Assembly: GCA_021432655.1 (NCBI GenBank)
Contig: MU271556.1
Span: forward strand, 1-44,771
DNA length: 44,771 bases
Origin: Atractiella rhizophila
Lineage: Eukaryota
Reading direction: 5' to 3'
The number at the start of each line of letters is the position of its first letter. The stretch's first letter is position 1. Position numbers and translations under genes: made by a program. Of the stretch, positions 11,465 through 33,718 are shown piece after piece. The notes under the pieces were generated by a model that ran no database searches, was not told where the DNA came from, and saw nothing but the letters and a program-made list of their open reading frames with translations.

Positions 11465-14400
11465 ATGCTACGCCTCCCCCGCCCACTCCGGCCGCGGCGC
11501 ACAGTGCTCCCTCCGATCCGTCAGCTTCACGTCGTTCGCTCAATCTCCTTCGCTTCTTCTATCCCCCGCATCGCTGGTAGGATCGTTGGGAGGTCGGTAA
11601 TCGTTGGTGGGGGCGTGGCTGGGGGCTTGGGATGGGTTAATTGGAAGGTTGAAGGTGAGCAGTTTCTGTGGTTGAAGGCGCAAAGGTTGCTTTGAGTTCG
11701 CATCTTTCTCAATGGTATCCTTCGCTGTATCATTGAGAAGGTGTTTGGAGAGGTGTGGAGAATATAGAAGATGGGGATTTGAGTGTAGAAGCTGAGAGCA
11801 TGCTGCAAATCTATAGCTCATGGTCGAGTACCCCTTTGGAAAGCTCATCAATGGGCATGCGAGTTGCAACTGCAGGCCGATTATTCTTCATTTGTTTCTA
11901 GCTTTCCAGCCTTGTCAACTCTTTTGCGTCTGCTTTGTGTGTTGCATTTTAATGCCAGACTAGTCACGGCACTTGCTGGCTGCCGCCCGTCTTCTGCACG
12001 GAGGGTACAGCGGGCATGATATCGACAACACCATTCTTTTGCCTTAAGGATTTGAGAAACGTCGAAAGTGATTGCTAAAGAGCGAATTTTTGAGCTGGTT
12101 CGTCGAAGTTGGAAGATAGATAGCTATGATCCCAAGGAATAGCTTAACAGCAACAGTTCTCCTATTGAGTGTAATGGTGAAGTCAGTTAACGATTGGGTT
12201 TTTGACGTGCTCTTGGGCGGGATGTTCTTACCCAAGTTGCGTCTGCATCAAGTAATCGTTCTTTGCCCGTTCAATAAGAAGGTTATATGAAATGCCCTTG
12301 AATCTGTTGTTGAAGGATGGATTGTCTTGTCTTGAAATGAAGGGTGATAATGAGAGTACCCTTTGCGAGTCACGCCTTATTAGAAAACTATACCTCTACT
12401 CATGGCCGACGGTCATGTCTCCTCTGACCATTTTGCCTATTGTGTCCATTGCAACTGACATGCAACTGCACAGGATTTCGACAAAGCGCAGCCTCGTATC
12501 TTGACGGCATCTCATCCAACCTCTCTTCCGCCTACCTCTCTCTGTCTGAAAAGGGGGCTTCGGCTTTCGAGAACGCTTCGGGTGTTTACGATCAGACGAA
12601 GGACAACGCGAAGATTCTTCTTGGGGATGCTAGAGACAAGTTTGACGACATGAGGGATCGAGTGGGCGAGGGATTTTCGGAGTGGTGGAACACGAAGGAC
12701 AACGCGAAGATTCTTGGGGATGCTAGAGACAAGTTTGACGACATGAGAGATCGAGTGGGCGATGGATTTTCGGAGTGGTGGAATGCGAATCGCGGCTCCT
12801 CAGACAGTCCGCCCCCGCCGCCAGAGGAGGATCCTAGGGATGCAGGTTCTGGAGAGGCGTCTACTTCCAAAGTCACGCTCGCTGCTGCCACAGTTGCTGC
12901 AGCTCCGCTGGCCGCGATGACTCCCGACAGTCCAATGTCTGATGATCCGACTAATGACCTTATGCTCCTCACGAGAAAGCTGATTGAGATTCGCGGTATT
13001 CTTTTGTCTATCGATCATGGCGAAGCACTACAGCTACCAAATATTGTTGTCATTGGTAGTCAAAGCAGCGGGAAGAGTAGCGTGTTGGAAGCTATCGTTG
13101 GGAAGGAATTCTTGCCAAAGTGGGTTCCCTTTGTCAAATCATGCTAGTACAAACAGTTTCTGCAGAGGCAACAACATGGTCACTCGACGTCCGATCGAGC
13201 TGACCCTTATTCACACGCCTCCAACAACTGCGAATCCTAAGCCCCAGACTTTTGCCGAGTTCCCAGCATTGGGTCAAGGACACATTACCGACTTCTCCCT
13301 TGTCCAACAAACCCTCACCGATCTCAATCTTTCCGTTCCTGCCTCCCAGACTATCTCAGACGATCCGATCGAACTCCGAATCCATTCTCCCAACGTCCCC
13401 GACTTGTCGCTCGTCGACCTTCCAGGTTACATTCAGATCAGTTCAATGGACCAACCGGACGAATTGAAGGATAAGATTGCCAGCCTCTGCAAAAAGTATA
13501 TCAAGGCTCCTAACATCATACTTGCCGTCTGTTCCGCCGACGTCGATCTCGCCAACTCTCCTGCTCTCCGTGCAAGTCGGAAGGTCGATCCGCTTGGTCT
13601 GAGGACGATTGGTGTGGTGACGAAGATGGATTTGGTCGAGCCGGAGAGGGCGGCCGATGTCATTTCCAATGAGAGGTATCCATTAGCGTTGGGATACGTT
13701 GGAGTGGTTTGTAAGGCTTCAGGGAAGTCGAAGGACAAGAGCGGAGAAAAGAGCTTGATCGGTCCCATCCAGAAGCAGGAGGAGAATTTCTTTGGTGCTA
13801 ACAAGGAGCACTTCAACAAACCAGGGATCCAGTTTGGAATGGCGACCTTGAAGCGAAGACTCATGCAGGTCTTGGAGGAGTCTATGAGTTCAAGTTTGCA
13901 CGGAATTTCCAACGCAGTCGCTGTCGAGTTGGAAGAAGCTTCCTATCAATTCAAGGTCCAATATAACGATCGAACGATCTCTGCTGAAAGTTACGTCGCT
14001 GAAGTTATGGATCAGCTCAAGGGGAAGCTTCAAGAATTTTCAAAAACGCTCAACAAGGCAGAAACGAGGCGAATGCTAAAGGAATCCCTTGATCAAAAGG
14101 TCCTCGACATCCTCGCTCAGATGTACTGGAACGATTCAAAATCAGCCGAGCTTAGTAAACTAGCGACTGACGGTGTCAAGGGGAACGCCGACGATATTTT
14201 GGATCAAGTTTGGAAACATAAGCTTGACGCCTCAACTTCCGCCCTTACCAAGTCCGGAATCGGTCGTGCGTCCACACAGCTCGTCGTTGAAGCGATTCGA
14301 TCACATGTATCGACTATTGCCAATGCGCCGCCTCTTTCTTCTCATCCCAGAGCAGCCGAGCAAATCATCGCTCTTGCGGATGCCATCCTGCGCGACCGTT

Positions 14401-15256
14401 ATGCCATCACTTCGGATCAGGTCGAAAACTGCCTCAAGCCGTTCAAATACGAGATCGAGATGGAGGACAAAGAATGGGACGTTGGAAAGACACGGAGTAT
14501 CGATCTCATCGAGACCGAACTGAAGATGTGCGATAAGGCGTTGAAGGACATCTCGGATGCTGTTGGGTGGAGAAAGTTGAAAAATGCGATGGACTACGTC
14601 AAGGAAGTCGAGAAGCGAGAGAAGCGCAAACGGGAACGTCGGAGGAATAACGAGCCTGAGCCGGAAGATGACAAGGATCCTAACCGAGTCGTCTACAATC
14701 CAAATCTGCTTGTGAAAGGTCTGTATTTCCCCCACGTCATGACATATCTAATTGAGGAGCATAGCTCGAGAGGCAATGTTCCTTACCACTCGGTCATCAG
14801 CACTTAAGCTTCGAATCGCTGCTCTTAAATCTCGTCGGTGTAAAGGAGGTCCAGACAACAAGGGCCTGTGTCCGGAAATCTTCCTCAATGTTGTCGCAGA
14901 CAAACTCGCTTATACTGCTGTGATGTTCATCAACATTGAGCTGTTAGCAGAATTCTTCTATCAAGTCTGTCCTATTTTGAGCCCCGAGTGCTTTCTTGCT
15001 AATGCGAATCGTCTAGTTTCCTCGGGAGATTGACAATCGTCTTTCGTACGACCTTGACCGGTCAGAAATCAGTAGATTCGCTCGAGAGAATCCCGCGGTG
15101 AAGAAGCACCTCGATCTTCAGGAACGGAAAGAAAAACTCGAACTCGTAATGGAGAAGCTGGACAGTTTAGTCAAGCTACAGGCAGAACAGAAGCATGGGG
15201 GTCAAGCACGCCCTTCAGCTCGAGAACGGAAAGGTCTCTTCGGACTATTTTCGTAG
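11465..15256 (+). CDS. MGM1: Mitochondrial inner-membrane fusion dynamin-like GTPase Mgm1/Msp1 (OPA1 orthologue)
   Basis: Arg-rich presequence, a TM segment and a second Ala-rich hydrophobic segment. GTPase motifs [25 protein letters not shown] and TKMD are present. Introns at 11655-12473, 13120-13165, 14719-14764 and 14965-15016 all keep frame. Stop TAG at 15254-15256. Confidence 0.93.
12596..12784 (+). repeat. In-frame tandem duplication (96 + 93 nt) within MGM1 exon 2
   Basis: [32 protein letters not shown] followed by [31 protein letters not shown]. Units 12596-12691 and 12692-12784 differ by a 3-nt indel and a few substitutions. Confidence 0.95.
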
Positions 15257-15758
15257 AGACGTCGAAGGTGTCTGTACAATGCTGTTTCGTTCGTCTAGTG
15301 AATGTATTTGACGTTCTTGTTTCTATTTTTCACCCTTGATAATTCTTCCAATGTTAAACGACTAGATAATACCAGTCACACCTACTCTGCCATTGAGGCA
15401 ATCTGAATGGATAGAATAAATTTCATTCTTGCATCTACCTACAAGGTAGTTAACACGTTGGGTATCAGGGACAAAGGAACACCAGATGGCTACATGATAC
15501 AAGAGTGTTGATGCTGCTAGATATTGAACTCATCACCAATGAAGTGGGCAAAGAGTTTCATCTTCACATCCACATGCATATCAGGGGTCTTGCCAGGGAT
15601 GTTGTACAGTAACCGGTCCACTCTCTTCCTGCAAGCACAATTAGATGAGAGGGCTCACAATATAGGCACATGTGCAGATACTTACCTGATATGTACTCAA
15701 GGGTTCTTCTTGTTTCGGGTAACAGGTCATAGACAACCTCCATCTTTGGTGGTGGATC

Positions 15759-16550
15759 TAGAGATGCCAACAAGTATCGACCAGCTTAAAGCCTGATTTG
15801 TAACTTGTTGTGACCTTTGACACAGGTACCCTGTACTCATGAGTGCAACTCACGGGTACCCTTGTATTAACTTAGACTCTACTCATCAACATTGTTGAAG
15901 CTATGGTATAAAGGCTTAATCTGCACTGTTGGTAAATGACTGGTCATTCTAGCTCAATGGTTAATCCCACGTGGTAGCAAGAGAGTGAGAAATGTACTTT
16001 CTACCACTTTGCACTAACAATCCCCAATCACTTATTAGTGAGTGCAAATGATATAAATGAATATGTGATTGGGGAGAAAGAAAAGGAAAGAAAACACATC
16101 AAGCATACCTATAAGTCCGGACTAGCGGTGAAGTGCACATGTTTGGCACGGCATCCGGAACGCAATGCAAATAGAACAAACAAGTGACATCCACAGATCT
16201 CCAACAAACATAATTTTACAGTTTAGGCACATTAGTTTACATAGATGACTTATTATACATTACTTATGGCTTAAACACCACTATTACTTGTATCTCAGAG
16301 TCAGATAAGCCATTTTGAATGTAAAAAAGATCAAAAATTGATATAAAACTCTCTTTAACTCTTTCAAACAAGTACCCCACGGGTACCTGCCATTTCAGGA
16401 CATATGCTCATGAGTACTCTTAGGTACGTAGCAGAGAACATGAATGGGTACCCCTGATGAAAATTTACCCTCTGTAGCTGATTTGTAACTTGTTGTGCAC
16501 AGGTCCTGTGGCACAAGTACCCATGAGTACCATACTCATTGACATCTCTA
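15759..16550. mobile_element. Non-autonomous hAT-like MITE (unit A copy)
   Basis: Termini TAGAGATGCCAAC... and ...ATTGACATCTCTA are inverted repeats. Flanks GGTGGATC (15751-15758) and GGCGGATC (16551-16558) form an 8-bp TSD with one CpG transition. Many subterminal GGTACC/GAGTAC motifs. Confidence 0.85.
15893..16206. mobile_element. Solo LTR (314 bp) nested in the unit-A MITE
   Basis: Starts TGTTGAAG and ends CTCCAACA. The 5-bp TSD AACAT is at 15888-15892 and 16207-16211. Unit B has the empty site (TCATCAACATAATTTT). Confidence 0.85.
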
Positions 16551-17031
16551 GGCGGATCACAGGGGTGAGGGAACATTGGAGGTGACCCTTGTGGAGGAAG
16601 TACTGCTGGTATGGAGAGGAGGGTTGGGACGTATGAGGCAATTGGCCATCCCTGGCTTGCCCACTGAGGCATGTGACAATCCCATACTACAGCACAAGTT
16701 ACTACTCATCCTGTTACAGAAGCAGTGAGGCACTCATGTTTACTGTTGGCAGCCTGCATGTTGTGCAAGGTGGCCTCATTGTGGAACATCTTCCATTGGA
16801 AGTCGTGAACGGTATCTTGGTGCTGCTCAATTCAGCCTCTGTTCGTTGCATCTCATGCTCCCCTGTGCCCTTGCCCACTCCTGTGTTGTATGTGAAAGGC
16901 AAACGAAAACAAAGTGAGAAACCTTATGGGCAGGCTAGGATTGTGGCAAGGTGCTAAAGTTTAAAACAACACCACAGCTTGGAACCAATGACGGAAAAGA
17001 AAACCACCACATTGCACCACACCCAGTCACG

Positions 17032-17694
17032 ATGGAACCACCGATGGCCAACCTCAGAGTCAACTTGAGAGCCGCATCGAGGACTTTCCTAAATATTTCA
17101 GAGAATCTGGAAAACTTGTATGAACACTTTGACAACCCACCAACTTTGGCGCACAATCAACAACAATTGCTCCAGCAAATCCAGGCAGATCAACAACGAG
17201 CATTGCACCATCTCAATTGGGCCAAATACCTGAGGAAAATTGAAATGTACAACCTGAAGGTTGCACAGCAACAAGTGTAAGTACTTCTTTTCCATGTGAG
17301 CCATGGTGAATGATAACTGGAACCATTGTCAGGGCTGAATGGTCCATTGCTTGAGTCCATAACTCCAATGTTGACCTCCATACGACACCACTGACCCAAC
17401 TCAATATCAAGAGGAAGTGGCTCCACCTATCCCAGCCTTCTTGCCTGGGGTAGCTCCACCCATCCCTCCTCCCTTCAACCCCCCTCCTTTAAATGCAGCA
17501 CCTCACAACCTTTGGGTCAGGTTAGGAACCTCTCTGGTAAGTGTGCTCTGGAATCAGACCCCATGCTTAGTTGCATTACAGTTGAAGCCATGAATGAGCT
17601 GATTGCAGCATATGGTATTCAAGTACCAGCTCGCCAAATGACGGTACAGGACAAACAACTTCCCTTCAGCCACTTCATTGGTGCGAAGTATTGA
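17032..17694 (+). pseudogene. Decayed paralog Y (unit A) of the 3-exon coiled-coil/DUF1773-like family
   Basis: Exon 1 MEPPMANL...LHHLNWAKYLRKIEMYNLKVAQQQ, then intron 17277-17332. Exon 2 has a nonsense TGA at 17352-17354 (CGA in the intact paralog) and two frameshifting deletions. The last exon is ...LIAAYGIQVP...FSHFIGAKY*. Confidence 0.8.
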
Positions 17695-17730
17695 GTCCCT
17701 TCAGCCACTTCATTGATGCGAAGTATTGAG
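17661..17730 (+). repeat. 35-bp tandem duplication at the 3' end of paralog Y (unit A only)
   Basis: TCCCTTCAGCCACTTCATTG(G/A)TGCGAAGTATTGAG occurs twice. Unit B has a single copy. Confidence 0.9.
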
Positions 17731-17994
17731 TCACTCCTTTGAAACATGAATCCATTACAAGGTGTTATACTGTATTCTGTATTTGTTCCACAATTCTTAG
17801 CCAGAGTTCACAATATCTTATCATCTATTCCTCTAAGATTCATCAGTTCTTGGTGTGAGTCATAACACGCACTTTTGAGCCTTTATACCTCCCTCACGAG
17901 GCACATTGAAATGAAATGAAGTACACCATCTTACTGCATATGTTTGCGCCTTTCTGAAAGTGCAAGGAAATTTTATTTTAAAGTTATGAAAAAA

Positions 17995-19818
17995 TCAGAT
18001 CAGTTCAATGGACCAACCGGACGAATTGAAGGATAAGATTGCCAGCCTCTGCAAAAAGTATATCAAGGCTCCTAACATCATACTTGCCGTCTGTTCCGCC
18101 GACGTCGATCTCGCCAACTCTCCTGCTCTCCGTGCAAGTCGGAAGGTCGATCCGCTTGGTCTGAGGACGATTGGTGTGGTGACGAAGATGGATTTGGTCG
18201 AGCCGGAGAGGGCGGCCGATGTCATTTCCAATGAGAGGTATCCATTAGCGTTGGGATACGTTGGAGTGGTTTGTAAGGCTTCAGGGAAGTCGAAGGACAA
18301 GAGCGGAGAAAAGAGCTTGATCGGTCCCATCCAGAAGCAGGAGGAGAATTTCTTTGGTGCTAACAAGGAGCACTTCAACAAACCAGGGATCCAGTTTGGA
18401 ATGGCGACCTTGAAGCGAAGACTCATGCAGGTCTTGGAGGAGTCTATGAGTTCAAGTTTGCACGGAATTTCCAACGCAGTCGCTGTCGAGTTGGAAGAAG
18501 CTTCCTATCAATTCAAGGTCCAATATAACGATCGAACGATCTCTGCTGAAAGTTACGTCGCTGAAGTTATGGATCAGCTCAAGGGGAAGCTTCAAGAATT
18601 TTCAAAAACGCTCAACAAGGCAGAAACGAGGCGAATGCTAAAGGAATCCCTTGATCAAAAGGTCCTCGACATCCTCGCTCAGATGTACTGGAACGATTCA
18701 AAATCAGCCGAGCTTAGTAAACTAGCGACTGACGGTGTCAAGGGGAACGCCGACGATATTTTGGATCAAGTTTGGAAACATAAGCTTGACGCCTCAACTT
18801 CCGCCCTCACCAAGTCCGGAATCGGTCGTGCGTCCACACAGCTCGTCGTTGAAGCGATTCGATCACATGTATCGACTATTGCCAATGCGCCGCCTCTTTC
18901 TTCTCATCCCAGAGCAGCCGAGCAAATCATCGCTCTTGCGGATGCCATCCTGCGCGACCGTTATGCCATCACTTCGGATCAGGTCGAAAACTGCCTCAAG
19001 CCGTTCAAATACGAGATCGAGATGGAGGACAAAGAATGGGACGTTGGAAAGACACGGAGTATCGATCTCATCGAGACCGAACTGAAGATGTGCGATAAGG
19101 CGTTGAAGGACATTTCGGATGCTGTTGGGTGGAGAAAGTTGAAAAATGCGATGGACTACGTCAAGGAAGTCGAGAAGCGAGAGAAGCGCAAACGGGAACG
19201 TCGGAGGAATAACGAGCCTGAGCCGGAAGATGACAAGGATCCTAACCGAGTCGTCTACAATCCAAATCTGCTTGTGAAAGGTCTGTATTTCCCCCACGTC
19301 ATGACATATCTAATTGAGGAGCATAGCTCGAGAGGCAATGTTCCTTACCACTCGGTCATCAGCACTTAAGCTTCGAATCGCTGCTCTTAAATCTCGTCGG
19401 TGTAAAGGAGGTCCAGACAACAAGGGCCTGTGTCCGGAAATCTTCCTCAATGTTGTCGCAGACAAACTCGCTTATACTGCTGTGATGTTCATCAACATTG
19501 AGCTGTTAGCAGAATTCTTCTATCAAGTCTGTCCTGTTTTGAGCCCCGAGTGCTTTCTTGCTAATGCGAATCGTCTAGTTTCCTCGGGAGATTGACAATC
19601 GTCTTTCGTACGACCTTGACCGATCAGAAATCAGTAGATTCGCTCGAGAGAATCCCGCGGTGAAGAAGCACCTCGATCTTCAGGAACGGAAAGAAAAACT
19701 CGAACTCGTGATGGAGAAGCTGGACAGTTTAGTCAAGCTACAGGCAGAACAGAAGCATGGGGGTCAAGCACGCCCTTCAGCTCGAGAACGAAAAGGTCTC
19801 TTCGGACTATTTTCGTAG
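17995..19818 (+). pseudogene. MGM1: 5'-truncated duplicate (or second allele) of MGM1, lacking the presequence, TM segments and G1-G3 motifs
   Basis: Protein-identical to MGM1 from [10 protein letters not shown] to the stop, with the same introns. No upstream exons are present. Confidence 0.85.
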
Positions 19819-20320
19819 AGACGTCGAAGGTGTCTGTACAATGCTGTTTCGTTCGTCTAGTGAATGTATTTGACGTTCTTGTTTCTAATTTTCACCCTTG
19901 GTAATTCTTCCAATGTTAAACGACTAGATAATCCCGGTCACACCTACTCTGCCATTGAGGCAATCTGAATGGATAGAATAAATTTCATTCTTGCATCTAC
20001 CTACAAGGTAGTTAACATGTTGGGTATCGGACAATGGAACACCAGATGGCTACATGATACAAGAGTGTTGATGCTGCTAGATATTGAACTCATCACGAAT
20101 ATGGAGCGGGGAAAGAGTTTCATCTTCACATTCACGTGTGTATCAGGGGTCTTGCCAGGGATGTTGTACAGCAACCAGTCTACTCTCTTCCTGCAAGCAC
20201 AATTAGATGAGTGGGCTCACAATATAGGCACATGTGCAGATACTTACCTGATATGTGCTCAAGGGTTCTTCTTGTTTTGGGTAACAGGTCATGGACAACC
20301 TCCATCTTTGGTGGCGGATC

Positions 20321-20951
20321 TAGAGATGCCAACGAGTAGGACTCGCGAGTACGGGTACCCTTACTCCGGAGTATTGATCAGCTTAAAGCCTGATTTGTAC
20401 CTTGTTGTGACCTTTGACACAGGTACCCTTGTACTCATGAGTACTACTCACTGGTACCCTTGTATTAACTTAGACTCTACTCATCAACATAATTTTACAG
20501 TTTAGGCACATTAGTTTACATAGATGACTTATTATGCATTACTTATGGCTTAAACACCACTATTACTTGTATCTCAGAGTCAGATAGAGCCATTTTGAAT
20601 GTGAAAAGATCAAAAATTGATATAAAACTCTCCTTAACTCTTTCAAACAAGTACCCCATGGGTACCTGCCATTTCAGGACATATGCTCTTAGGTAGGTAG
20701 CAGAGAACATGAATGGGTACTGTTGTCGTTTATGATTCATCCTGCCATCTCACTTGAGTGGCAATTCTAGAACGTTCCTTTTTGCCACCAGTTCTCGTGT
20801 TTTGTCTTATCTTACTTTTCAGAAGATTCTAGAACATTGTATCCACAAGTATATAAAGGCTCTGAAAAGTGAAATAATTATTATGACGTTCTACAATAAC
20901 AACAGGTACCCCTGATGAAAATTTACCCTCTGCAACTTGTTGACATCTCTA
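20321..20951. mobile_element. Non-autonomous hAT-like MITE (unit B copy)
   Basis: Termini TAGAGATGCCAACGAGTA... and ...GTTGACATCTCTA. Perfect 8-bp TSD GGCGGATC at 20313-20320 and 20952-20959. Confidence 0.88.
20721..20904. mobile_element. Solo LTR (184 bp) nested in the unit-B MITE
   Basis: Starts TGTTGTCG and ends TAACAACA. The 5-bp TSD GGTAC is at 20716-20720 and 20905-20909, with an internal TATATAAA. Unit A has the empty site (GAATGGGTACCCCTG). Confidence 0.82.
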
Positions 20952-21442
20952 GGCGGATCGCAGGGGTGAGGGAACATTGGATGTGACCCTTGTAGAGGAA
21001 GTACTGCTGGTATGGAGAGGAGGGTTGGGACACATGAGGCAATTAGCCATCCCTGGCTTGCCTACTGAGGCATGTGACAATCCCATACTACAACACAATT
21101 TACTACTCATCCTGTTACAGAAGCAGTGAGGCACTCACGTTTACTGTTGGCAGCCTGCATGTTGTGCAAGGTGGCCTTATCATGGAACATCTTCCATTGG
21201 AAGTTGTGAACGCTATCTTGGCGCTGCTCAATTCAGCCTGCATTCGTTACGTCTCGTGCTCCCCTGTGCCCTTGCCCACTCCTGCGTTGTATGTGAAAGG
21301 CAAAACAGAAACAAAGTGAGAAGCCTTATGGGCAGGCTAGGGTTGCGGCAAGGTGTTAAAGAAAACCAAGTTTAAAACAACAGCCACAGCTTGGAACCAA
21401 CGACGGAAAAGAAAACCACCACATTGCACACACCCAGTCACG

Positions 21443-22104
21443 ATGGAACCAGTGATGGCCGACCTCAGAGTCAACTTGAGAGCCACATTGAGGACTTTCC
21501 TAAATATTTCAGAGAATCTGGAAAACTTGTACGAACACTTTGACAACCCACCAACTTTGGCGCACAATCAACAACAATTGCTCCAGCAATCCAGGCAGAT
21601 CAACAACGAGCATTGCACCATCTCAATTGGGCCAAATACCTGAGGAAATTTGAAATGTACAACCTGAAGGTTGCACAGCAACAGGTGTAAGTACTTCTTT
21701 TCCATCTAAGCCACGGTGAATGACAACTGGAACCATTGTCAGGGCTGAATGGTCCATTGCTTGAGTCCATAACTCCAATGTTGACCTCCATACGACACCA
21801 CTGACCCAACTCAATATCAAGAGGAAGTGGCTCCACCTATCCCAGCCTTCTTGCCTGGGGTAGCTCCACCCATCCCTCCTCCCTTCAACCCCCCTCCTTT
21901 AAATGCAGCACCTCACAACCTTTGGGTCAGGTTAGGAACCTCTCTGGTAAGTGTGCTCTGGAATCAGACCCCATGCTTAGTTGCATTACAGTTGAAGCCA
22001 TGAATGAGCTGATTGCAGCATATGGTATTCAAGTACCAGCTCGCCAAATGACTGTACAGGACAAACAACTTTCCTTCAGCCACTTCATTGGTGTGAAGTA
22101 TTGA
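21443..22104 (+). pseudogene. Decayed paralog Y (unit B)
   Basis: Same lesions as the unit-A copy plus an extra 1-nt deletion in exon 1 (CAGCAATCC vs CAGCAAATCC). Ends FSHFIGVKY*. Confidence 0.8.
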
Positions 22105-22583
22105 GTCACTCCTTTGAAACATGAATCCATTACAAGGTGTTATACTGTATTCTGTATTTGTTCCACAATTCTTAGCCAGAGTTCACAATATCTTATCATC
22201 TATTCCTCTAAGATTCATCAGTTCTTGGTGTGAGTCATAACACGCACTTTTGAGCCTTTATACCTCCCTCACGAGGCACATTGAAATGAAATGAAGTACA
22301 CCATCTTACTGCATATGTTTGCGCCTTTCTGAAAGTGCAAGGAAATTTTATTTTAAAGTTATGAAAAAAAGTGTTCCCTCCTGGATTTGAACCAGTGAAG
22401 AGGCCCACAAAGCTGATAATGACATGCCGGAAGCGCCGCATGCGATTTCTACAGTGTGTTTTGGGTTTTCTCAGGTTGTGTGCCAGAAGAACATGTTTGC
22501 CTACCATGAGGGGAAGAAAGTGAACACATGTGAGTTGGAATATACTCCTTTACATTATGTTCTCATGCCATCTTAGAATCATC

Positions 22584-24275
22584 ATGCCCCGTCCTAAGAA
22601 AAAAAATTGGTGCAAACCAACGCATCCATGCTCAGCATCAAAGGCGGGAGGAGAGCCCCTCAGATACACCTCAGGTTGCTCCATGTCGCTAGAAAGACAT
22701 CATGCAGGATTGCCGCAGCACTTCCAGATTACACAACTGACACCATCTCAGCATTTGACCTGTCAAATTTGTATGCAGCAACAGCAGGAGGATGAACCTC
22801 CTAGAGGAAGCTGATGCTGACGGCAGCTGGAACCTCCATCTTTATGCGAAGAATTCAATAACATTTCCTCTGATGGACAATAAGAGGGAGTATTTGAGAA
22901 TACTGATCTGCCTGATCAAACAGTGGTAGCTCCTCGGGATACAAGACAAAATCAGCATCCTTTTCTCACATTCAACTACGTACCAGACACAGTGGAGGCA
23001 ATCCGACTTTCGGGCTAGAATGAATCCTTTTGATCAGAATGTGGTCCCTTTCATTGGCTAGCTTGAGGAACAGATAGCCAGGAGCTCTAAACGGAATCCT
23101 TATGACCTTTGTCGGTTTACAGCTCATATCAATGTGGAACTCTGCATCTCCATCAAATCAGTCAAATACCTGTTCAAATGCATCTACGAGGGAAATGATC
23201 AGCACAAGCAATCCTTCATAGCAACCGAGGGGATGATAGGGTGGTGGATGAGATTCAAGAGTACTTGGATGCTAGATTAATTGGATCTTCTGAAGATAAG
23301 TGTTTAGAACTACTCTGAGATGTTGTTAGGGCTTATTTGATACAATTTTACAGCCTGTTACTGGATTTTCCCCTTTACTTTACACCAGCATTTTCCTGTG
23401 GTTATTTGCTTAGCAGTACACCTTCCTGATCGGCATTCTGTGACCTTTAATCCTCATTACTAATGTCCTTACCTATCCTAAGGCTCCTCAATTCCTTACC
23501 TGGAAGTCAGGCTCATGCTCTAGAAAATCTGGGAGAAACAAGAAGCTGCCAGCCGTATCTACTATGTTGCACCGTCACAAGGGGAGTTATTCTATCTCCG
23601 AATGCTTCTGCATCAGGTTGCCAGTCCGAAATCTTTTGCGGATATCTGAACAGTAGAGGGAACTGTCTATGAGACTTTCAAGGCTACATGTGTGGCTCTT
23701 GGACTATTAGAAAGTGATGAAGAATGGGATTATTGTCTCAATGAAGCCAGCACCGTCAAGAATGGCTTTGCAATGCGATCTCTGTTTGTCTACATCCTGC
23801 TATTCAGAGTCGCCAGCGAACCCAGAAGATTATGGGACAGCCATCATGAGCAACTCAGTGACGATTGTAAACACCTTCTATGGACAAAATATGGTGTACA
23901 CAATCCAACGAACGAGCAAATTATCAGCCTCTGTCTCCTCGAAATTAAAAATCTCTCCAGGCTCATGGTAAATCCCTAAGTGACTTTGGACTACCACAAC
24001 CTGCAGAGCGACTACAAAGATGGGGAGGCAAGACAAGGATTATTGGGGAAGAACTTGTATATGATCGACCACTACTTTACACACGTATTCAGACAGAGTT
24101 ACCGTCATTATATCTGGACTAACTTCATGCTTATGACACGGTTGTAGAAGCATGGCAAAATGGAAATGGTAGATTATTTTTTATTGATGGGCCAGGAGGG
24201 ACTGGAAAGATGTTCGTTGAAAACCTATTACTTGCCAGCGTGCGTTCAGTGGGGAACATTGCACTGGCAGTGGCA
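22584..24275 (+). mobile_element. Degraded Helitron RepHel (Rep C-terminal part plus start of the PIF1-like helicase)
   Basis: Canonical Helitron blocks in order: AHINVELCISIKSVKYLFKCIYEGND (~23122-23198, eroded Rep motif 3 YxxKYxxK), DEIQEYLDAR, VHLP, GELFYLRMLL and ALGLLESDEEWDYCLNEA...MRSLFVYILL. Walker A GPGGTGK lies at 24189-24209 within FFIDGPGGTGK, followed by IALAVA. Multiple stops, frameshifts and deletions; the boundaries are approximate. Confidence 0.9.
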
Positions 24276-24735
24276 GGGGGGATGCCCGAGGGACGAGGGC
24301 ACTGGCACACATGTATCCTGATTCATTACACAATTCTTAACCAGACTCCTGACTCATTATCAATATGCTAGTGAGACTGCATTTGGTGAATGCTGTGCAT
24401 GACATGCAGGACTTTGAGGTGCATGAAAAGGGGAAAAGTCTGATGACTCTGTTTTACTCCAACATGCTTGGTTCTTGGTAATATAGGTGCATGTTACATA
24501 ATGTGATACAGCTAACGAGTTAAGATGAGCACGGGAAATGAGCGTAGTTACAGTTACAAGAATGTGCAGAATTCTGCAGATAGGTATAGTAGGTTGCTGC
24601 ACTGAAGCACGGCTGGATGGTTTTGACAAGGCTAGAATAAGCAAAATGTGTATCGACCATCAGGGCCACAAAGGAACTTGAGTACACAACACGAATTTGG
24701 ATCGAGAGGCGGCGGCACACCAGGAGCCCATCAGG

Positions 24736-31858: not shown

Positions 31859-32670
31859 TATGCTGGATGAGAGCTGGTGGGTGCTAGGGTAAGGTATGAG
31901 TAAGGGTAAGGTATAATTTCTCGTGGTTCAAGCGACTTGTCCAAGTCTGCGGAGTCGGACAGCAACCACCCCGTGACCTGGATAACCGAACTGAGAGTTA
32001 AACTTGTTGATCGTAAATAACAATAACAGAGGTCAGTTTGCAGGTTAGCTGCCATCCAGCAAAGCCCTGAGCAAAGCCCCCCTACTCAACCATACACATC
32101 TTTACTATTGGTCATTTACCGATGCTACGCGTCTTTGTCCTCTTGTCAGTGCACGCCAGCTTCCCGTTTGAACTTCTGTGCTAGGATAGCTAGTTGTAGG
32201 CCGAATGTCGCCAACAAATTTCGATGGACTAATTAGAAGGTTGAAAGCGAGTGATCGCTTCTGTGTTGAATGCAAACATTGCTGGATTGGGACAATAAGT
32301 TATGCAGGTTGAGGAGGGAGATGAGACACACTGAGGATTCTGAAACCTAGTGGAGGGTTGATGTGATCTTCGGATGGGAATTATACATAATAACCCATCA
32401 AATCACTGCCTAACGATGTGTCAGAGGTAACTAGTGCGTCACTTGTTTTTTTTTTATTTATTTTGCCTGATTCAGGGGAGCGATGACCATAACTCAAGCA
32501 CGGCAGTCATGTTTGTCCCGATTCAAGTACTCAAAGAATAAACAGACATCAACATTTGAACAGGCTAATATATATTGTGATGGGTACAAGAATCGAGCTA
32601 ACAATTGTGAGGAATTCAGGATACTTGATAAAAATATTGTCAAGGCCATCTTGTGATTGTGACTTCAGAG

Positions 32671-33412
32671 CTAGAATCGAACCCCAATGAAATGACAAAA
32701 TAAGGCACGTCCTTGCTCAGCCGTCGTGACGAGAGCCCTCCCAGGGACATCGTATGCCTCAAGTAACAAGGTCACGTTCTCTTCTGCACCAAACTCGCTA
32801 AGTATATTCGTTGATTTCCAGAGCCACTTACCACGGAGCCTCCTAAGATCACCCCTGGTTAGCGGGAATAGATCGTGAGGTGCTGCAACCAAGGGTTGGG
32901 GATCGAAGGCAGGAGGTGCCTCAAACACTACCGCTGGGATGACTGGCTGCATTTCTCGTTGGTATGGGAGGTTGAGAGGGGCGAGGGCCAAAAGATCGCT
33001 GTTGATGTTGGAGTTATGCACTCGAACAAGCGTCCATTCGTCACTGACAATGTCACCAGTCGCCAGTCACCTAGTGCCGCTATGTGAAAGAATGTACTCA
33101 CGTTTGTTGCCGTGCGACCTTCAGGTTGTGCACCTCGACTTTGTTTACGTACTCGATCCATTCAACACGGTGGAGCTGATCGTGTTGCAGTTGGAGAAAT
33201 CCTTGGACTTCGTTTTGTATCTGTTGCTGACCTGCTTGGATTTCGCCACACGTCTGTTTTAGCTGTTGTTGAGCTGCTTGGATTTCGCCAGTCGCCTGGT
33301 GTAGCTGACGCTGAACCGCTTGAGTTTCCTGGAGTATTTGATGCAGATTGGTAGCCCACTCCGGAATGTGGTTAAGTGCAGGGTTTGGCGTTGGCGTAAC
33401 CTCCTCGACCAT
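32671..33412 (-). CDS. Intact 211-aa, 3-exon protein: Gln-rich coiled-coil plus C-terminal domain resembling DUF1773/Mug135_C
   Basis: Exons 33412-33102, 33043-32832 and 32783-32671 are joined by GTGAGT..CAG (58 nt) and GTAAGT..CAG (48 nt) introns into an open 636-nt frame. The C-terminus reads VRVHNS...LAPL...PHDLFPLTRGDLRRLREENVTLLLEAYDVP...LFCHFIGVRF*. The family assignment is by eye. Confidence 0.8.
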
Positions 33413-33718
33413 GGCTCGATATGAAAAGCTTTCGATGGCTCGTTTTTCGTTTGTTCCCAGATGTGATGTCTTAAAACAATAGGGTTAGGTTAGTAGAGCC
33501 GAGCCAATCTTTTCGTAAATTGACGCCCAAAGCTGCAGTTAATGAGACATAAATTTTATGTTGAGCAAACAGACGCAATAGTAGCCTACTGAAATAACAA
33601 TCTTGAGACATCCAACTGACACCACAGAACTTCTCTTTGCTTAAGACATTAAGAGGAATGGTAGGTTTTGATCGTAAACATCGGTTCAACGTCGGATGGG
33701 CTGGAGCTGATCAAGTTC

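Follow-up and report, generated by a model that had tools for sequence, protein, structure and literature searches.

A minus-strand gene at 32671..33412 of an Atractiella rhizophila scaffold (contig MU271556.1) raises the question of whether a protein made up of a helical stalk and a small C-terminal domain belongs with the Tdk1/Mug135 type of meiotic driver, as a sequence-only reading of this DNA had proposed. The 44,771-nucleotide stretch, referred to here as the window, makes up the entire scaffold.

Open reading frames, splice signals and translation define a three-exon gene with two introns and a product of 211 aa. All its parts lie on the minus strand. Exon 1 (33102..33412, ATG at 33412) supplies codons 1-103 plus two bases, which encode a short N-terminal part and the bulk of the Gln-rich coiled coil of the stalk. 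Intron 1 (33044..33101, 58 nt, GTGAGT..CAG) bridges the stop-free stretches 33484..33098 and 33066..32671. Exon 2 (32832..33043) encodes the end of the stalk (DEWTLVRVHNSN), a Pro-rich linker and the start of the head (PHDLFPLTRGDLRRLR), and exon 3 (32671..32783, stop codon included; EENVTLLLEAYDVPG...LFCHFIGVRF) is the best-conserved part of the family. Intron 2 (32784..32831, 48 nt, GTAAGT..GCAG) is in frame and stop-free, so that its retention gives an open product of 227 aa in place of the 211 aa of the spliced form. The head-coding region (32674..32886, residues 157-211) spans intron 2, encodes three short helices and holds a sub-threshold match to the Pfam family PF08593. The spliced product is letter for letter KAH8917643.1, hypothetical protein BT69DRAFT_1286463 [Atractiella rhizophila] (P0003), and an HMMER search of 1.84 billion cluster representatives with the exon-2/3 translation, intron 2 retained, gave 100% identity to this protein except for the 16 intron-encoded residues. 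The 211-aa spliced gene that had been read from the letters is thus borne out; it had also been called hidden, and it is already annotated in GenBank.

Transcript contigs from public runs were compared with the locus. Run X4, which contains 52% of the sampled words, was treated as RNA in practice because a different X4 contig terminates with a T-run before 33534, the poly(A) site of the neighbouring gene. Contig 6 of this run joins 32783 to 32832, exactly at intron 2 (CT..AC on the plus strand). Behind 33043 the same contig carries a loose end, GTTTGTTG, which corresponds to the final 8 bases of exon 1; therefore intron 1 is spliced out as well, and the RNA check proposed for the splicing supports both junctions. 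Exon 1 is covered over 33111-33372 by X4 contigs 7-9, and the gaps in X4 cover at 33373-33412 and around 33065-33110 prove nothing. Depth in X4 was 16-21 for this gene versus 742 for the neighbour. In the rhizosphere metatranscriptome X2, a contig 95-99% alike also lacks the intron-2 stretch and is thus spliced. The gene is real, transcribed and spliced; the evidence consists of contigs, which do not give transcript ends, strand, level or life stage.

These transcripts bear on the possibility that the gene is an active single-gene toxin-antidote killer meiotic driver of the Tdk type, whose product would be a harmless oligomer in carriers but would assemble into a toxic form in spores without the gene. 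The RNA comes from a rhizosphere metatranscriptome and from a run that looks like an ordinary culture; it shows no meiotic restriction and speaks against such a killer, although Tdk1 is also made vegetatively. Counted against it as well is that we know of no described sexual cycle for A. rhizophila. We consider an active killer improbable.

The architecture of the protein was modelled with AF2. With a seven-row alignment (A3) the mean pLDDT was 72.5 and helices were placed at residues 18-117, 167-171, 175-184 and 196-206; with the single sequence the helix only was modelled and the C-terminal half fell below a pLDDT of 50. The Pro-rich residues 117-156 also stayed below 50, and the model thus does not render the domain as a single compact unit. 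The stalk is preceded by about 17 residues of low confidence. The long helix agrees with the Gln-rich coiled coil that had been noticed in the letters, and the motifs listed with it (RVHNSN, LAPLNLP, PHDLFPLT, LLLEAY, FCHFIG) are all present. Within the stalk lies a 42-nt tandem repeat of 2.5 copies (33216..33322), whose 14-aa units amount to two heptads each. A PP pair between stalk and head is conserved in all three full-length members of the family.

A homotrimer model scored 0.51, against 0.01 for the best of three controls. Of the proteins solved as homomers 21 of 30 attained this mark, and of those solved as single chains none of 23 did (among eukaryotes, 17 of 29 and 0 of 30), figures to be read with the reserve that three copies were modelled here, which departs from the calibration, and that long helices are easily placed side by side. 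Contacts agreed between runs to at least 84%, with a partner pLDDT of 80. Over residues 23-90 the contacts pair each residue with itself in the other chain at heptad spacing (44-44, 58-58), and residues 101-116 of one copy touch residues 187-205 of another. What is predicted, therefore, is a parallel coiled-coil stalk against whose end the heads are packed, the stoichiometry having been modelled as a trimer alone. The AF2 and homotrimer models together support the stalk and compact C-terminal domain described before.

The link of the C-terminal half to Mug135_C (DUF1773, PF08593) was examined by profile. In hmmscan, residues 157-210 of the protein aligned with positions 27-82 of the 82 in PF08593 at 13.1 bits (E 0.12), short of the gathering cut-off of 23.8 bits; PF08593 was the sole family matched on this half, and PF07957 (DUF3294) gave no match at E <= 10. 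For the two relatives described below (P0005 and P0006), and for three last-exon pieces from paralog copies A, B and C, no PF08593 match was obtained at E <= 10; the two relatives had no Pfam match at all, and the exon-2/3 translation with intron 2 retained matched 0 Pfam families. The placement fits the family, whose domain sits at the C-terminus and sets in near the end of a long alpha-helix: the match ends at residue 210 of 211, the head follows the AF2 helix of residues 18-117, and the Atlas structural alignments described below cover residues 100/106-211.

A second route, through embedding and predicted-structure neighbours in the ESM Atlas, led to the same family. The whole protein scored 0.92 (200-201 of 256 features) to clusters in which 10-13% of the members carry PF08593 and 16% PF07957, with a TM of 0.52-0.55 over residues 41/48-211. 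For residues 100-211 the scores were 0.93 (204/256 features) against a cluster in which 18% of the members carry PF08593 and 0.91 against a 'Mug135-like C-terminal domain' cluster (PF08593 in 35%); scores of 0.9 or more are also reached by 4-10 of every 100 shuffled proteins. By structure, the same residues gave a TM of 0.65/0.83 to an 85-aa cluster, aligned over PF07957. A Basidiomycota cluster labelled 'meiotic expression up-regulated', with PF08593 in 58% of its members, was reached at a TM of 0.59, the alignment there falling on PF08593 itself. For residues 100-211, 9 of the 10 best named matches fall in one family or clan, and by these independent measures the nearest neighbours are clusters that carry the family. 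The family shares in the neighbouring clusters are low (10-58%), and the Atlas neighbourhood is thus lead-grade evidence.

Solved Tdk1 was not recovered by either sequence or fold, and the resemblance to Tdk1 read from the letters gains no support from these searches. The Tdk1 chain was not found among PDB sequences at E <= 10 with the single protein or with family profiles, one of these profiles being impaired by the retained-intron columns of P0005. Foldseek against the PDB returned nothing at E <= 0.001, and the 40 matches listed at E <= 10 did not include Tdk1 (9JA5/9JA6), the model being poor at residues 117-156. A wide structural search (VIA) listed coiled coils alone, at Z of about 7.

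A further lead concerned the head. Residues 165-210 superpose on helix-loop-helix motifs with an rmsd of 2.0-3.6 A over 41-54 residues (6.2 A for CDNF). In second-look alignments they met residues 992-1035 of TAF1 (Z 5.4, rmsd 2.0, 42 residues), the C-domain of CDNF (Z 4.8), DEK (Z 3.5) and the SAP region of FAN1 (464-506, Z 3.2-3.4), and Rho_N clusters of the ESM Atlas lay at TM 0.34-0.39. The head is similar to SAP/HeH motifs in superposition, at Z scores of 3.2-5.4; it differs from them in that hmmscan gave no SAP match by sequence in the protein. A SAP/HeH-like head facing chromatin or DNA is put forward as a hypothesis only, since the Z and TM values are all under the bars of the tools.

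The protein could then be an orphan coiled coil unrelated to Mug135_C, with a generic SAP/HeH-like C-terminus and a Pfam and Atlas likeness due to chance or convergence. The sub-threshold PF08593 match, found in one of the three full-length family members, would fit this explanation, as would the alignment of residues 165-210 on the SAP-type motifs of FAN1, DEK and CDNF and on TAF1, the Rho_N clusters, and the finding of two true relatives only among 1.84 billion representatives and 5.8 billion clusters. Against it, the two independent routes, HMM and embedding or predicted structure, converged on the same family out of 24,736, with the best named Atlas matches concentrated as they are. The Atlas structural alignments moreover span residues 100/106-211 and are not limited to the last 45 residues, and the SAP-type Z scores stay under the tool's own bar. 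An orphan origin is thus rather unlikely, and remote homology to the Mug135_C/DUF3294 superfamily is probable. By the family's own cut-off the protein is not a Mug135_C member, and the link appears real but weak. The proposed DUF1773/Tdk1-like character holds, then, as a weak convergent link to Mug135_C, with Pfam in the right register and the Atlas in agreement; it does not hold at the level of a threshold match, and neither of the two relatives matches PF08593.

Relatives were sought well beyond this genome. The HMMER search of the 1.84 billion representatives had three matches: the protein itself (P0003), the 127-aa product of a Logan contig (P0005, E 2.8e-4) and a repetitive protein of 1047 aa (P0004), the last of which was set aside as spurious. 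P0005 has an insertion exactly at the position of intron 2, which is probably a retained intron. The second relative, P0006 (164 aa, E 1.4e-6), was found by profile alone; it comes from Pseudohyphozyma bogoriensis, in another class of Pucciniomycotina, and is without a long coiled coil. P0003, P0005 and P0006 have in common R..N, PL, PP, FP.T..D, LL..Y and LF.HFIGV. A whole-protein search returned the protein itself and nothing else, a word-index search for longer proteins returned none, and a metagenome scan with alignment A4 gave 238 pattern matches, 0 of them confirmed.

Two further diverged paralogs had been reported within 20 kb. Two diverged loci are indeed present, each doubled by a tandem duplication, and all four copies are decayed. 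Paralog A (17032-17691, plus strand) is a pseudogene: its exon 1 is open (81 aa), and its exon 2 has two frameshifts and an in-frame TGA (EWSIA*VHNSN) where the intact gene has Arg. Paralog B (21443-22101, plus strand) is a duplicate of A at 97.7% identity, with the TGA and frameshifts of A and an extra frameshift in exon 1. Paralog C (15520-15764, minus strand) is a 3' fragment that reads DPPPKMEVVYDLLPETRRTLEYISG, an intron, and a last exon closing with LFAHFIGDEFNI and a stop; its upstream exons were looked for and none was found. Paralog D (20080-20326, minus strand) duplicates C at 93.5% identity, with a further frameshift in the last exon. Both introns of paralog A lie at the positions of the intact gene, the place of intron 1 is also kept in B, and the intron-2 position is common to the intact gene, A/B and C/D. 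Identity to the intact gene was 30-47% over the pieces matched by tblastn. The paralogs are old by this measure, and they amount to two decayed loci.

Loci A and C are each present twice because of a tandem segmental duplication at 13433..22369, with unit 1 at 13433-17994 and unit 2 at 17995-22369 (4.4-4.6 kb). It contains the 3' portion of a dynamin gene of the Mgm1-like type, together with paralogs C and A in one unit and D and B in the other. One intact and four decayed copies thus stand on the 44.8-kb scaffold. The pseudogenes that had been listed as typical of a selfish family are found here, and on this scaffold the Tdk trait of many copies with frequent pseudogenes is seen. The copies on the scaffold, described earlier as dispersed, form a local cluster doubled by one duplication.

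The surroundings of the gene were scanned with Pfam on 105 ORF translations (batches of 26, 33 and 46 with some overlap, covering part of the ORFs in the window). Named products were an MFS transporter, a bHLH protein, an MRS2-like transporter, and the Mgm1-like dynamin with its truncated duplicate. The intact gene is flanked on one side by a RabGAP-TBC gene at about 28.9-29.6 kb and on the other by a strongly expressed minus-strand gene; the poly(A) site of the latter, at 33534, is 122 bp upstream of the ATG of the intact gene. A PIF1-like helicase fragment of 50 aa (24123-24368), separated from the duplication by 2 kb and from the intact gene by 8 kb, was the sole TE-like signal among the scanned ORFs, with neither transposase nor reverse transcriptase among the 105 translations. 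The association with transposable elements that had been suggested is thus weak.

Variation in the coding sequence was read from the contigs. Nine coding differences were found, 7 missense, 1 nonsense and 1 synonymous, in a small sample of contigs at depth 2-21 from runs of other strains or organisms that may mix alleles and paralogs. The nonsense variant, Q39*, occurs in one X1 contig at depth 2.5, and X4 contributed two variant contigs over 33269-33372. Runs X1 and X3 had small shares (0.09 and 0.05) and a guessed RNA status, and were used for variants alone. With 8 of the 9 differences altering the protein, the fast divergence proposed from the letters is in line with the data, and the spectrum is compatible with selection that is relaxed or diversifying and departs from the strong purifying pressure typical of a housekeeping gene.

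The same spectrum would fit neutrality, and the gene could be on its way out, a transcribed copy that selection has ceased to maintain, as with its four decayed paralogs. The Q39* variant and the broken state of every other family copy on the scaffold would agree with such decay. The frame is nevertheless intact over 211 codons, both introns are correctly spliced, the conserved motifs are retained relative to P0006 from another class of Pucciniomycotina, and the nonsense variant is that of one contig at low depth. Loss of function under way seems to us improbable.

On balance, and as a somewhat likely account, we read the locus as an expressed, lineage-restricted Atractiella gene for a stalk-and-head protein, a diverged relative of Mug135_C/DUF3294 in a fast birth-and-death family. 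Residues of about 20-117 would form a parallel, in-register coiled coil (modelled as a trimer), followed by a flexible Pro-rich segment at about 118-156. The last 55 or so residues would make a three-helix head that packs back on the stalk end of the neighbouring chain. Stalk end and head together (about 105-211) are most likely a very diverged relative of PF08593/IPR013902 and PF07957 lying outside the current Pfam model, in the Mug135_C/DUF3294 superfamily to which the fission-yeast Tdk killers belong. The gene is the one intact copy, beside four decayed ones on the scaffold, of what would be a small and fast-evolving family with birth and death of members. By analogy with Tdk1, the protein may work as an oligomer whose head/stalk junction binds a host, probably nuclear, partner.

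Whether this stalk-and-head family arose as a selfish element, now active, resistant or decaying, is a separate matter, and a selfish origin seems to us possible though doubtful. Several features would agree with the active killer introduced above: the remote Mug135_C likeness in Pfam and the Atlas, the predicted parallel stalk with its internal repeat, the excess of protein-changing variants, and the argument of a 2025 preprint that basidiomycete IPR013902 genes may be drivers (bioRxiv 10.64898/2025.12.28.696746). Beside the transcription data, the failure to match Tdk1 itself by sequence or fold stands against it, as does the N-terminal region, which in the published account of Tdk1 is required for autoinhibition and for toxic foci (PMC11551426), while here about 17 residues precede the stalk. 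An unrecognised Tdk/Mug135 clade in Atractiella and Pseudohyphozyma, with the intact copy an active or recently active single-protein killer driver, is in our view very improbable. If true, it would be the first such driver in Basidiomycota, and the N-terminal domain would be dispensable for drive. The gene is only a candidate for drive tests and not a discovery of drive.

The homology would have consequences of its own. If it holds, the Tdk/Mug135 superfamily extends further into Pucciniomycotina than the published survey, in whose taxon list the two Pucciniomycotina IPR013902 proteins both belong to Rhodotorula toruloides (10.64898/2025.12.28.696746). The form found here would then be one overlooked by current domain models, which bears on the counting of candidate fungal drivers and helps to ask which parts of Tdk are essential. 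A taxon-name search of the preprint's six supplementary files did not find 'Atractiella' (10.64898/2025.12.28.696746), and among the titles listed on A. rhizophila, on tdk1/DUF1773 and on Mug135/IPR013902/PF08593 none treats this gene.

The comparison with known systems turns on Tdk1. Tdk1 is mug135 of S. pombe (SPCC330.04c), a protein of 357 aa described as an N-terminal domain (1-111), a stalk (112-275) with an internal repeat at 120-226 and a C-terminal domain (276-357), with DUF1773 spanning 268-340; its coiled coils are parallel, with 3 or 4 helices, and a piN/piS of 1.2 is given for it versus 0.16 genome-wide (PMC11551393, PMC11551426). Like the Tdk family of Schizosaccharomyces as these reports and the preprint describe it (PMC11551393, PMC11551426, bioRxiv 10.64898/2025.12.28.696746), the Atractiella protein has a long helical stalk, here a modelled parallel coiled coil, with a small C-terminal domain directly after it. 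It also resembles Tdk1 and its family in the internal stalk repeat, in the several copies with many pseudogenes, in the excess of nonsynonymous variation, and in matching, if weakly, the Pfam model PF08593 to which they also belong. It differs from Tdk1 in that neither sequence nor fold searches linked the two, in a PF08593 match that is sub-threshold and confined to profile positions 27-82, and in a Pro-rich segment of about 40 residues between stalk end and head. At 211 aa it is also shorter than Tdk1 (357 aa), and it has no obvious counterpart to the 111-residue N-terminal domain with its Z-shaped part. In the Tdk drivers as described, a PP linker joins the Z-shaped N-terminal domain to the helix, whereas in the Atractiella protein the PP lies between stalk and head.

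With DUF3294 (PF07957), the likeness lies in the nearest Atlas clusters by features and predicted structure, where 13-16% of members carry the domain; the difference is that hmmscan gave the protein no match to it at E <= 10. Within the same phylum, the comparison is with the 371 IPR013902 proteins that the preprint counts in 107 Basidiomycota species and for which it proposes an ancient killer-meiotic-driver superfamily, the basidiomycete genes being perhaps drivers (10.64898/2025.12.28.696746). A basidiomycete tdk-like family, as had been suggested for this locus, is therefore an idea already published at the family level. These proteins, for instance those of Botryobasidium botryosum, are as described similarly short, with a helix and a domain, multi-copy and patchy in distribution, and have a PP between the N-terminal part and the domain; in contrast to them, the Atractiella protein is not recognised by InterPro. 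The Atractiella gene and the Pseudohyphozyma protein P0006 would thus form a separate, more diverged clade, and what would be new here is a clade missed by the domain model and reduced to stalk and head.

Sequence variation within the studied gene (33412..32671, minus strand) was seen in contigs of two public sequencing runs, X4 and X1. In X4, in practice an RNA run, two contigs span the same 104 bases at 33269-33372, differ from each other at 3 positions and have depths of 11.9 and 11.3. They derive either from a pair of alleles or from the gene and a second, near-identical copy. In X1, codon 39 of the gene (33298) is replaced by a stop in one contig.

Past the stop codon, contig 6 of X4, which shows the splicing of the gene, continues across 32396-32564 as short pieces (32396-32432 and 32492-32510). 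The stretch that it skips, 32511-32563, has GT..AG borders on the plus strand and not on the minus strand. The extension may be a spliced, convergent plus-strand transcript fused in the contig with the 3′ end of the studied gene, or a misaligned contig end. On the other side lies a minus-strand gene (33534-~35100) encoding a Lys/Glu/Asp-rich protein, for which no Pfam match was found. Its coverage in X4 is ~40 times that of the studied gene, and its poly(A) site at 33534 lies just 122 bp from the ATG of the latter.

The window contains a tandem duplication with a unit of 4.4-4.6 kb (13433-22369), which includes the 3′ part of an Mgm1-like dynamin gene. The full gene occupies ~12428-14807 and the truncated copy 17990-19369. 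Over the dynamin part the two units are 99.9% identical (2 differences in 1375 bp), and over the remainder identity is 93.5-97.7%. Gene conversion could account for the higher identity of the dynamin part, as could selective constraint acting on the truncated copy or an artefact of assembly. Inside the Mgm1-like gene, in its 5′ coding portion, a 79-nt direct repeat (12618-12789; repeat family D9) was observed, with 95% identity and 93 nt from start to start.

Among the 105 ORF translations scanned with Pfam, the sole match resembling a transposable element was to a PIF1-like helicase (PF05970, E 2.6e-9), in an 82-aa open stretch at 24123-24368 on the plus strand. The match covers profile positions 9-58 of 223, and the stretch may be what is left of a helicase gene or a Helitron-type element.

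P0006, the Pseudohyphozyma bogoriensis relative of the encoded protein, is labelled 'AGC/AKT protein kinase Gad8' by its source. This name looks like an annotation error, because the protein is only 164 aa long and contains no Pfam family at E <= 10. P0006 begins with MGASNSK, a start that resembles an N-myristoylation signal.
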